Assembly (NCBI GenBank): GCA_040880745.1
Contig: JBBDHX010000042.1
Coordinates: 4,362-68,361 of the forward strand
Direction of reading: 5' to 3'
Source of the DNA: Actinomycetota bacterium
GTDB taxonomy: Bacteria; Actinomycetota; UBA4738; HRBIN12
Length of the DNA: 64,000 nt
The first letter of the stretch is position 1, and each line of letters begins with the position of its first letter. Positions 12,001-15,000 of the stretch are shown here, one piece after another. The position numbers are program-made.

Positions 12001-15000
12001 CGGCCCGCCTCGGCGGGATGTTGTCGAGGACCGTGGTCGAGTCGACGTTCGGTTGGTAGCTCTCCGGCCGCGGATCGGACGCCTTCCGGGCGTCGACCTC
12101 GATGACGTCGAACTTCCGAAAGCGCCGATCGAACGGCATGTCTCTGAACGGGACGGGGAACAGCCGGATCCACCGAGGCTGCTCCATGTCGATCCCGGCC
12201 ACGCACACCGCCTCGCCGTGCTTCTTCCCGATCGCGGGGTAGGCCTTGACCGTGACGAGGATCTTCAGGGTCTCGTTCCTCACGGCACCGAGTATGGGCG
12301 ACGGCCGTGACGGCGAAGCCCACCGCGCGGTGCTGGTCTCGTCGTCCCCGGGCGGTTGGCCCCCGGGGACGACGATGGACATCAGCTGAGCACGTCGGCG
12401 GCGAGGTCGGCGAGGTAGGCGAACAGCTCGTCCGTGTCTTGCCCGTAGCCGCGCGCGACCTTGCCGACGTCGTGCACGGACTCGACGAGGGTCGGTGGCT
12501 CGTCGCCATCCACGGGATCGACGACGAACGGGAAGTCCTGCGCGAGACCGAAGTCGTTCGCCGGCATCTTGCTCATCGCGAAGATGGCTACCTTCTCGCC
12601 TCCGACGATGGGCGCCCAACAACCCTCCTCCCCATTCCTCATGGTGATGCTCAACAGGCCCCAGCTCTCGTCGCTGATATTGGCCTGGATGGTGGTGGTC
12701 CGGCGCCCCTCGCGCCGCACCTTGACCTTCATGCCTGCTTCTGGGCTGAACATGGTGTCCTCCTTGGAACACGTTGCCCGCCCGACGATCGGACGGCAAC
12801 TGACTGGCGGAGTGGTCTCTCGCACCTGGGGGAGCGGGGACGCGCGCCGCAGCTGGATCAACTGATGGCCTCGGGCCCAAGTAGTCAGGTTGCAGGCGTT
12901 AGCCCCACCACGAACGTTTGTAGCACCGAGAAGGAAGTCGAGTGCGGCGAACTCCAACTATTTCCAGGAGCGCCAGGGGGCCTCGACGGGGTCCCAGGTC
13001 TCTTGGTTCGCCGAGGGCGACGGATCGGGATGGGCACCGCTACCAAGGCCGAGGGCCAGGGCACATCATCGTCAGGCAAGCGTTAGACGAGGGCGAACCT
13101 ACGGCAGCCCACGCAGGATCATCGACCAAGGGCGTCTGCCACCTGATCGGCGATCTCAGCAGTAGGCACGTACATCGCACCGCCGTTCTCGGGAGCGCCG
13201 TAGTCGCGGATCCACGCGACCGCGCCGTCCACGTTCACCAAGACGAACGTATGACCGGGCTCTCCGCTTGGCATCGCCCATCGCATGACGCCGTACGCGG
13301 TCGCCACCCCGTTCCCGTCGTCCGTGAGCATGGGGGTGCTCACTCCGAGCGCCTTCCCCTCGGCCGTCCACGCGGACGCGGGATCCGGTGAGATGCTGAG
13401 CACCCCGACGTCGAGATCCTGGAAGGCTCTGTCCTCCTGCAGGTCGACCACCTGCTGCATGCAAGGCGTTCACCCGGGACCCATGCTGAAGTACAGGAGC
13501 ATCGGCCGCTCGCCCAGCTTCTCGGTGAGCGAGACGCTGCTGCCTCCGGCCTCGGGGAGCGTGAAGTCGGGCGCGTCGTCGCCCACCGACAACTCCTGGC
13601 TGGGCGTCGACGTCGCAGGAGCGCCGGTCGAGCACGACGTAACGAGCAGCGCCAGCCCACCGAGGAAGACGAGCGCTGTCCACGCCGGGCGGTTCCTCAA
13701 GACCACGCTCTCCTGGTAGAAGTACTACGTACAGTAGTGAGCCTACCGCGGGACGGCAAAGGAGAGGATCTTGGGAGCGTTCGCCCTTGCCCTGGTGGCG
13801 GGCGTGATCTCGTTCTCCTCGCCGTGCTGCCTTCCGTTGATGCCTGGCTACGTGTCATACGTCTCGGGCGTCGCGGGGGTGTCGGCGACAGCGACCGCCG
13901 TCCGACACAGGACCTTGGGGGCGGCAGCGCTGTTCGTCCTCGGGTTTGCGCTGGTCTTCACCGCGATGGGGGCGAGCGCGTCCGCCCTGGGCTCACAGAT
14001 CCTTCAGCACCGGATCGGCCTCACCCAGATCGCCGGCGTCGTCGTGCTCGCCTTCGGACTCACGATGCTCGGCGTGGTGCGTGCCCCGTTCCTCTACCGC
14101 GAGAGGCGGTTGGCGCTCCATCGGATCCAGCCTGGGCCGGCCGGCGCCCTCCCGCTGGGGGCAGCGTTCGCGGTCGGGTGGACCCCGTGCATCGGCCCGG
14201 TGCTCGCGGCGATCCTCGCCGTCGCCGCGTCCACGTCGACCCCGGCGCGGGGTGCGGCCCTTCTGTTCACGTACTCGCTGGGTCTGGGGATCCCGTTCCT
14301 CCTGCTCGCCGCCGGCGTGGCTCGCGGCGGTCGCTTCCTGGAGTGGCTCCGGCGACGCGCGAGGGCGATCGAGATCGTCGGAGGCTCGCTCCTGGTCGCG
14401 ATGGGCGTGCTGATGGTGACCGGCGCCTGGGTGTCGCTCTTCACGCCGATCCTCCGCCTGTTCTCCGAGACCGGGTGGCCTCCGCTATGACGGGCGCCGG
14501 AGCTACCCGCGGCCCTGACGCTCGGGCGGTGCGATCGGCGGCGCAGCGTCGCCGCCTGGCGCTCGTCCTCGTGATCACGGGGTCGGTGCTCGTCATCGAG
14601 GTGATTGGAGGCGTCGCCTCGGGAAGCCTCGCGCTGCTGGCCGATGCCGGGCACATGCTCACCGACGTCGCCGGGATCGGCTTGGCGCTCCTCGCGATGC
14701 GGTTCGCGCTGAGGCGGGCGGACGAGGAGCGCACCTTCGGCTACTACCGACTTGAGATCCTGGCCGCCGTGATCAACGGCGTACTCCTGTTCGGGATCGC
14801 CGCCTACGTCCTGATCGAGGCCGTTCGCCGGCTCAGCGATCCCCCAGAGATCCAGAGTGGGCTGATGCTCGCGGTGGCGCTCCTGGGCGCGGCCGCGAAC
14901 GCTGTCTCGCTCAAGATCCTCCACCCGGCGCAGGGGGAGAGCCTGAACGTGCGGGGGGCCTACCTCGAGGTCCTGGGTGACCTGCTGGGGTCTATCGCCG

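Follow-up and report, generated by a model that had tools for sequence, protein, structure and literature searches.

Selenoproteins described as "Prx-like thiol:disulfide oxidoreductase" (Prx, peroxiredoxin), which combine the Pfam domain PF00578 with a UxxC or UxxU motif, were tallied across bacterial genomes in 2006 and again in 2016, for the most part in Deltaproteobacteria (PMC1794560, PMC5029168), and a 2026 catalogue places them among the families "predicted with high confidence" (PMC13188914, Table 1). The named catalogued examples come mainly from Deltaproteobacteria (Geobacter, Syntrophus and Desulfotalea). Among proteins that work outside the cell, Bacillus subtilis ResA and Streptococcus pneumoniae Etrx1 and Etrx2 (PDB 2h1b, 2yp6 and 4hqz) are CcdA-dependent extracytoplasmic thioredoxin-like lipoproteins. 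Here we describe a predicted selenocysteine (Sec) protein gene, referred to below as the Sec gene, in a stretch of 64,000 nucleotides from the Actinomycetota bacterium assembly GCA_040880745.1 (contig JBBDHX010000042.1, positions 4,362 to 68,361 of the forward strand). This whole stretch is called the window, and coordinates are counted from its first base. The gene very probably encodes one exported Sec lipoprotein of 195 residues that carries the motif U79-T-P-C82 and would act as a CcdA-linked thiol-disulfide oxidoreductase, probably under BlaI-type control.

By definition (PF00578 plus UxxC), the predicted protein belongs to a kind of selenoprotein that has been predicted since 2004-2006. 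It shares with the catalogued Prx-like selenoproteins the PF00578 domain, Sec at the first position of UxxC, a downstream bacterial selenocysteine insertion sequence (bSECIS) within the coding sequence and the existence of Cys homologues, the comparison with the catalogued kind (representative WP_010940744.1) being one of definition. Unlike the catalogued proteins, members of this clade are predicted lipoproteins from metagenome-assembled genomes (MAGs) of Actinomycetota and Chloroflexota, with the signature (F/Y)(S/H)MxxG-U-xx-C...EPGHTF...RDYGAPENGG. Among the best 120 database homologues, the NCBI, JGI and ENA records of the clade are almost all fragments.

Like ResA and the Etrx proteins, whose CxxC motifs align on its UxxC, the Sec protein has a predicted membrane or lipid anchor outside the cell, and ccdA adjoins its gene in the window. 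It differs from them in the use of Sec for the nucleophilic Cys, in an overall structure nearer to that of BCP/AhpE-type peroxiredoxins, and in that adjacency to ccdA is not general (7/81 loci). With the BCP/PrxQ and AhpE peroxiredoxins it has in common the fold and the placement of Sec at the position of the peroxidatic Cys. Unlike peroxiredoxins, including the selenoperoxiredoxins (PxxxTxxU), it has UxxC instead of TxxU/C, and the catalytic Thr and Arg are missing. Particular to this case are the status of the gene as an accessory gene in its genus and its putative BlaI-operator and CcdA setting. The features of the gene itself are as follows:

13119..13706, minus strand: complete predicted selenoprotein gene, 195 codons plus stop, G-U79-T-P-C82, Prx-like-fold thiol-disulfide oxidoreductase lipoprotein
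13632..13706, minus strand: lipoprotein signal peptide with basic n-region RNR, hydrophobic core and lipobox L-V-T-S-C25
13470..13472, minus strand: predicted Sec codon UGA for residue 79, the N-terminal residue of the redox motif UxxC
13439..13455, minus strand: bSECIS-type hairpin with a 6-bp stem GCAGGU/ACCUGC and a 5-nt loop GGUCG
13119..13121, minus strand: true stop codon TGA of the Sec gene, from translation

Translation of the minus strand gave a frame running from GTG at 13706 to the stop TGA at 13121-13119, with a single in-frame TGA at 13472-13470. An alternative start, TTG at 13700, lies 9 nt from an AGGAG at 13714-13710 and is a better fit than GTG 13706. Around the in-frame TGA the sequence reads ...ERPMLLYFSMGPG-U-TPC-MQQVVDLQEDR..., with YFSMGPG directly before U79 and TPC-MQQ after it. 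The mechanical list of open reading frames (ORFs) cuts the gene in two, at 13470..13706 (78 aa) and 13119..13460 (113 aa). The read-through product matched the Pfam family AhpC-TSA (PF00578) at 9.6e-19 over residues 41-165, a match that spans the TGA and scores 68 bits against a cut-off of 26, and matched Redoxin over the same residues at 2e-13. Upstream of the TGA, a signal peptide and lipobox were encoded in every locus checked, and the lipobox Cys25 was invariant among 47 aligned orthologues. A preliminary description of this DNA had proposed an exported lipoprotein; the lipobox LVTSC and its invariant Cys support the prediction that the product is exported and anchored at the membrane.

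The identity of the in-frame TGA was examined by comparison with orthologous loci. Searches of a species-representative genome collection with tblastn yielded 159 confirmed stretches, of which 80 were kept as loci, mostly from Actinomycetota and Chloroflexota (Anaerolineae) MAGs. Homology continued through the TGA in these 80 loci, and the codon at the Sec position was TGA in 81/81 loci (the 80 plus the window) and never TAA or TAG. A 400-genome sample of the phylum contributed 6 further orthologues with one TGA each (218-243 bits), together with a distant Cys subfamily with the motif GxGCxxC (94-145 bits). The real ends of the orthologous genes were TGA, TAG and TAA without preference. Residue 83, which follows the motif, varied among M, L, I, V and N, and thus there is no conserved restart codon.

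The best 120 database homologues of the protein were then taken for their length pattern. In 112 of them the protein was 108-118 aa long, started just after UxxC and comprised the post-TGA part alone, which is the signature of a family truncated by gene callers. The other 8 were full-length and had "W" (4), Cys (3) or a deletion (1) at the site. A true Trp variant was rejected, since the one "W" homologue that was checked, P0005, proved to be a TGA translated with a table in which TGA=W. Cys occupied the Sec position in P0007, P0021 and P0023, and a TGC codon was confirmed in the two that were checked, P0007 and P0021. These proteins and the distant Cys subfamily are homologues of the type that the preliminary description had suggested looking for.

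Some individual sequences depart from this pattern. P0004 (L141:801-1361, from a JGI metagenome contig; 58% identity) has a 9-nt deletion that removes the TGA and two codons; it reads GPG-C-MQQ, keeps the downstream hairpin sequence, and is either a 1-Cys, Sec-free variant that occurs naturally or an artefact of assembly. The TGC form P0021 (L142:1983-2570, from an ENA contig) still has all 6 bp of the hairpin intact (GCAGAT/ATCTGC), which points to recent replacement of Sec by Cys, and the start of its gene overlaps the stop codon of the TlpA-like redoxin gene that precedes it. The assembly that holds the window also encodes a Cys-type paralogue (contig C38, 31880-32377, minus strand; YFSEGVGCDSC; 35% identity), a member of a distinct Cys subfamily without the hairpin. 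Two loci from sequences titled Methanosarcinales archaeon (L043) and Bacillota bacterium (L055) hold orthologues nearly identical in type to those of Anaerolineae; mis-binned contigs are a likelier source of these than real transfers. One genome carries a second copy of the Sec gene (L136, G020:C51:1487-2041) with 1 TGA and 1 TAG within the matched frame, which may be a decaying duplicate or may have its TAG upstream of the true start.

Downstream of the TGA lies a hairpin composed of GCAGGT (13455-13450), the loop GGTCG (13449-13445) and ACCTGC (13444-13439). The preliminary description had given the same stem and loop and had placed the start of the stem 20 nt downstream of the TGA; the sequences hold, and the distance needs correction, as 14 nt is the distance to the stem and 20 nt the distance to the apical loop. 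Published rules for bSECIS elements specify an apical loop of 3-9 nt, a stem of 4-16 bp, a G among the first two loop positions, a UGA-to-loop distance of 16-37 nt and a minimum free energy of at most -7.5 kcal/mol (PMC13188914, Fig. 2). The hairpin falls within all of these limits, with its 5-nt loop, 6-bp stem, 20-nt spacing and -13.8 kcal/mol, and loop positions 2-3 were an invariant G-U (G25, U26). Single-sequence folding was dropped as uninformative on whether this is a SECIS element (z -0.14), and a comparative test was used in its place.

Covariation was tested on 79 distinct sequences with 500 shuffles and with slid registers as control. The 6-bp helix was paired in 96.8% of cells, as compared with 18-34% for the slid registers, and the observed covariation score was reached by 0/500 shuffles. 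Pair 22-30 was A-U in 49 sequences and G-C in 30, and pair 21-31 was G-C in 74 and A-U in 5, with 0 broken cells and 0 one-sided changes at either pair. The compensating bases are synonymous, falling at codon position 3 of Asp88 (GAC/GAT) and codon position 1 of Leu89 (CUG/UUG), and selection on the protein therefore cannot explain the compensatory changes. Both pair states occurred in both phyla (L028 and L029 in Actinomycetota; L044, L053 and L070 in Chloroflexota), which indicates several independent compensatory events. Within the distant Cys subfamily, the equivalent columns were paired in 55% of cells and residues 87-89 were not conserved. Thus the SECIS-like character that had been proposed for this hairpin is borne out by the published constraints and by covariation. 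Collectively, the constant TGA in the 81 loci and 6 further orthologues, the covarying hairpin and the Cys forms bear out the proposal of a hidden selenoprotein split at 13470-13472, and the in-frame TGA is almost certainly read as selenocysteine.

The window belongs to an 88% complete MAG of 2.35 Mb in 52 contigs. A tRNA-Sec was found in this assembly (RF01852, 74.6 bits; ARAGORN call SeC(tca)), and selA (492.7 bits) and selB (268.3 bits) are neighbours on contig C11. A formate-dehydrogenase-like molybdopterin oxidoreductase gene (FdhA-like) on contig C35 has an in-frame TGA at about 23249 in the context ...SCNRT-U-HAPSV and is, from its canonical U-H-x-P motif, a predicted second selenoprotein gene of the classical type. 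The Sec machinery that the preliminary description had said should be sought elsewhere in the genome was thus recovered in these parts, with the exception of selD, which is taken up below.

To place the Sec protein among redoxins, a model was built with AlphaFold2 on the 47 orthologues (mean predicted local distance difference test score, pLDDT, 89.4). The closest structures to this model were the peroxiredoxins BcpB, Bcp1 and AhpE of the BCP/PrxQ/AhpE type, with TM-scores normalised by target length of 0.75-0.85; ResA was also matched. The best PDB sequence-profile matches were ResA (2.9e-13), a PrxQ, S. pneumoniae Etrx1 (3.7e-13) and AhpE, and there were marginal matches to Sco1/YpmQ (E ~0.005). 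U79-x-x-C82 aligned with C-E-P-C of ResA and C-G-P-C of Etrx1, in agreement with the proposal that the UGA stands at the first Cys of a thioredoxin-fold CxxC, and U79 aligned with the peroxidatic Cys of AhpE.

The catalytic residues of peroxiredoxins were absent from their expected positions. No Thr is found at -3 before U79, as the Prx motif PxxxTxxC requires, and the position of the AhpE catalytic Arg116 is taken by the invariant Pro150 of E-P-G-H-T-F. The features that mark TlpA, ResA and Etrx proteins were present, namely UxxC at the N terminus of helix 1 and a Pro before the TF(V/L) strand (E-P150-G-H-T-F); Pro150 is inferred to be a cis-Pro. The residues invariant in the 47 orthologues were C25, M75, G78, U79, C82, Q85, V87, D88, L89, D108, D129, W143, E149-F154 (and with them His152), D168, M178, Y179 and V180. 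Among the curated NCBIfam models, none reached its cut-off for the Sec protein: peroxiredoxin models scored 41.6 against 140 and 21.1 against 270, and the ResA model NF002854 scored 28.9 bits against 170. SCO1-SenC (PF02630) gave no match at E <= 0.01, and the spacing of the motif is UxxC, not CxxxC.

Membership in the peroxiredoxins as a catalytic family was rejected on the missing Thr and Arg and the low NCBIfam scores, and membership in Sco1/SenC on the missing PF02630 match and the UxxC spacing. The absence of the Prx Thr and Arg, the presence of UxxC and the lack of any NCBIfam model at cut-off point to a Prx-like fold whose active site is arranged as in thioredoxin-type thiol-disulfide oxidoreductases. 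The term peroxiredoxin-like in the preliminary description is apt for the fold and needs qualifying for the catalysis, as the protein would be of the thiol-disulfide oxidoreductase type. It is predicted to be ResA-like in its working and is not a ResA orthologue.

The surroundings of the Sec gene contain further predicted redox, metal-transport and regulatory genes:

13723..13739, no strand: putative operator palindrome TACTAC-N5-GTAGTG, nested in GGTAG...CTACC
13771..14490, plus strand: ccdA, DsbD_TM family thiol-disulfide transporter (PF02683, 5.8e-17; motifs SPCCLP and WTPCIGP)
14487..15404, plus strand: CzcD-like CDF transporter (PF01545, 1.1e-43; ZT_dimer, 5.9e-11)
15314-16027: second CDF transporter, after the first
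17537-18958: DUF305 protein
21682..22332, plus strand: second extracytoplasmic redoxin, TlpA/ResA-like, Cys type (PF00578, 1.1e-25; PF00085, 2.1e-10)
22412..22963, plus strand: BlaI/CopY-family repressor (PF03965, 3.8e-20)
22960..23949, plus strand: BlaR1-like M48/M56 membrane protease (PF01435, 8e-11; PF05569, 3.6e-4)

The Sec gene and the divergent ccdA, whose product has both conserved Cys motifs, are separated by a gap of 64 bp, and the palindrome sits in this gap. Three copies of its pattern, ACKAC-N5-GTMGT, are present in the window (13724, 20628 and 21653) where 0.29 would be expected, and 0/100 shuffles reached 3. The copies lie at approximately 13723-13739, 20627-20643 and 21652-21668, all at promoter regions. 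The other two flank an M23 peptidase gene and precede the TlpA-like redoxin, which lies downstream of the third copy (21653-21667). A divergent arrangement with ccdA and a shared operator had been proposed for the Sec gene, and the narrow gap and the recurrence of the palindrome at two promoters near the BlaI-like gene agree with it. The BlaI-like and BlaR1-like pair are candidate regulators of the three palindromes, and the genes at 17537-23949, together with the Sec gene and ccdA, look like one BlaI-type regulon of envelope redox and metal functions.

Similar gene sets were seen at other loci. The neighbours of the Cys-form locus L100 comprise BlaI, a BlaR-like protein, a second redoxin, DsbD_TM, DUF305, DUF3105, M23 and CDF, and at locus L103 a single strand carries M23, DUF3105, DUF305 and FixH together with Redoxin, DsbD_TM and the split Sec gene, the last three in this order. 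Genes for cytochrome c maturation or MsrAB were not observed next to the Sec gene. An ORF clustering of 80 neighbourhoods was discarded, as it was dominated by spurious high-GC antisense ORFs.

Two further observations concern the genes around the locus. The ATG of the first CDF transporter overlaps the ccdA stop (ATGA, 14487-14490), so that the transporter is probably co-translated with ccdA; the overlap indicates that translation of the thiol-disulfide transporter is coupled to that of a metal-efflux protein, an unusual pair for one operon. The long ORFs that flank the locus (11462-12880 on the minus strand, and 16037-18175; 472, 295 and 472 aa) have no Pfam match, and some of them may be spurious high-GC frames.

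From these data we propose the following mechanism. As the ribosome reaches UGA79, the hairpin would recruit SelB and Sec-tRNA-Sec, a hairpin-directed decoding step that is strongly supported by the comparative analysis, and selenium would then be inserted at this codon. The prolipoprotein would be exported and lipidated at Cys25, which would leave it on the external side of the membrane. In that position the U79 selenolate would attack a disulfide or a sulfenic acid of a substrate, and C82 would resolve the intermediate to form a selenenylsulfide. By analogy with the CcdA-ResA and CcdA-Etrx pairs, the product of the divergent ccdA gene would pass electrons through the membrane for re-reduction. 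A BlaI-type repressor acting on the shared palindrome probably controls the divergent promoter pair.

Several observations weigh against this proposal or against parts of it. With respect to the Sec machinery, selD was not found in the assembly by TIGR00476, PF02769 or tblastn with a same-genus SelD, and the matches to PF02769 were PurL and PurM alone, on contig C50. In relatives, selD scored above cut-off in 19/20 genomes, including 11/12 of the same genus, and its absence here is most likely an assembly gap. Synteny with one relative (G001) around selD ended about 1 kb past the shared block, and the corresponding region of a second (G002) gave no matches.

The contig that holds the window (C42; 70,203 bp) is compositionally the most atypical of the bin, with the lowest G+C (67.2% vs about 69%) and the lowest tetranucleotide correlation (r 0.989) among contigs 20 kb or longer. 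The Sec gene was not found in the 15 other same-genus genomes searched, and a 4-kb stretch of the window (36000-40000) had no match in the 12 same-genus genomes searched; the best match of this stretch, at 69%, was in a genome of another family that is itself a carrier of the Sec gene. The contig is accessory or horizontally acquired DNA, or else it is mis-binned, and because the gene and the stretch were not found in these same-genus genomes, its connection with the Sec genes of contig C11 depends on the binning. For this reason Sec machinery was also checked in the five other orthologue carriers, each at least 93% complete, and selA and selD were present in 5/5.

Two points bear on the hairpin and one on the neighbourhood. 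The 48-nt fold at -13.8 kcal/mol was no better than that of shuffled sequences (z = -0.14) in this 67% G+C DNA, and the hairpin overlaps conserved codons, so that part of its conservation could be at the protein level. In neighbour counts made by tblastn with the window proteins and from called-gene tables, only 7/81 loci had ccdA at 3 kb or less from the Sec gene, and the CcdA route is therefore not family-wide. A TlpA-like homologue lay within 3 kb in 10 loci. Nearly all loci with ccdA or TlpA-like neighbours were from Actinomycetota, and the others had unrelated neighbours; the association with ccdA and TlpA is lineage-limited.

A separate observation was made on selD itself in the relatives surveyed (G019, G016, G017, G018, G015, G146 and G281; for example, loci L106 and L107). 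The gene has one in-frame TGA in several genomes of the order and none in others, which points to switching of SelD between a Sec and a Cys form in this lineage.

Other explanations of the same data were considered. That the TGA is not recoded, and marks a pseudogene, two small genes, a sequencing error, or a Trp or Gly codon of an alternative code, is extremely improbable. Gene callers do split the gene, and selD is missing from the assembly; against this stand the recurrence of the same codon, TGA, and never TAA or TAG, in 87 independent loci of two phyla, the conservation of both halves as protein with a thioredoxin fold that spans the site, the absence of a conserved restart codon, and a covarying hairpin specific to TGA forms. 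Because TGA is also the true end of the Sec gene and of many orthologues, a genome-wide code in which TGA is a sense codon is excluded. Given recoding, the protein could instead be an extracytoplasmic Sec-dependent peroxidase, in which U79 would reduce H2O2 or organic peroxides directly, on the model of glutathione peroxidase or selenoperoxiredoxin, and would be recycled through C82 together with either CcdA or the TlpA-like partner. Peroxiredoxins are indeed the top structural matches (BcpB, Bcp1 and AhpE; 0.75-0.85 by target length), and U79 falls at the peroxidatic position of AhpE. Sec is intrinsically reactive towards peroxides, so that the missing Thr and Arg may matter less. Such a role is nevertheless unlikely: in addition to the absent Thr, the Arg position is held by an invariant Pro150, as in thioredoxin-like oxidoreductases, the UxxC spacing is that of ResA, TlpA and Etrx, and the NCBIfam peroxiredoxin models fall far below their cut-offs (41.6 vs 140; 21.1 vs 270).

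A role in copper handling was also weighed, in which Cu(I) at the cell surface would be bound or relayed, in the manner of Sco proteins, by U79, C82 and His152, with Met75 and Met178 as possible additions to the site, or in which the protein would reduce a cuproprotein partner. All five of these residues are invariant in the 47 orthologues, the recurrent neighbours include CDF, DUF305, DUF3105, FixH, an HMA P-type ATPase and a BlaI/CopY-family repressor, and the weak PDB sequence matches to Sco1/YpmQ point the same way. Set against these are the lack of a SCO1-SenC match, a UxxC motif where Sco proteins have CxxxC, and a neighbourhood so variable that many loci are without metal-related genes, and this reading is accordingly judged quite improbable. 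If it were true, CcdA, the TlpA-like redoxin, the CDF transporters, DUF305 and the M23 peptidase would form a BlaI/CopY-type regulon, and the protein would be an extracytoplasmic metal-trafficking selenoprotein, with a role outside the catalogued functions. The preferred explanation remains a thiol-disulfide oxidoreductase linked to CcdA.

What is known of recoding is unchanged by this gene, as selenoproteins of its kind were predicted two decades ago. The family is common in metagenome-derived genomes of Actinomycetota and Chloroflexota, with the 159 confirmed stretches and hundreds of protein clusters. As nearly all the database records listed show its members as "peroxiredoxin" fragments of 108-118 aa, counts of the selenoproteome in these phyla are underestimates. 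A curated model built on FxMxxG-U-xx-C ... EPGHTF ... RDYGAPENGG and the lipobox would mend these annotations. An exported, lipid-anchored selenoprotein would also provide a system for asking why Sec is used over Cys in the oxidising extracytoplasmic space.

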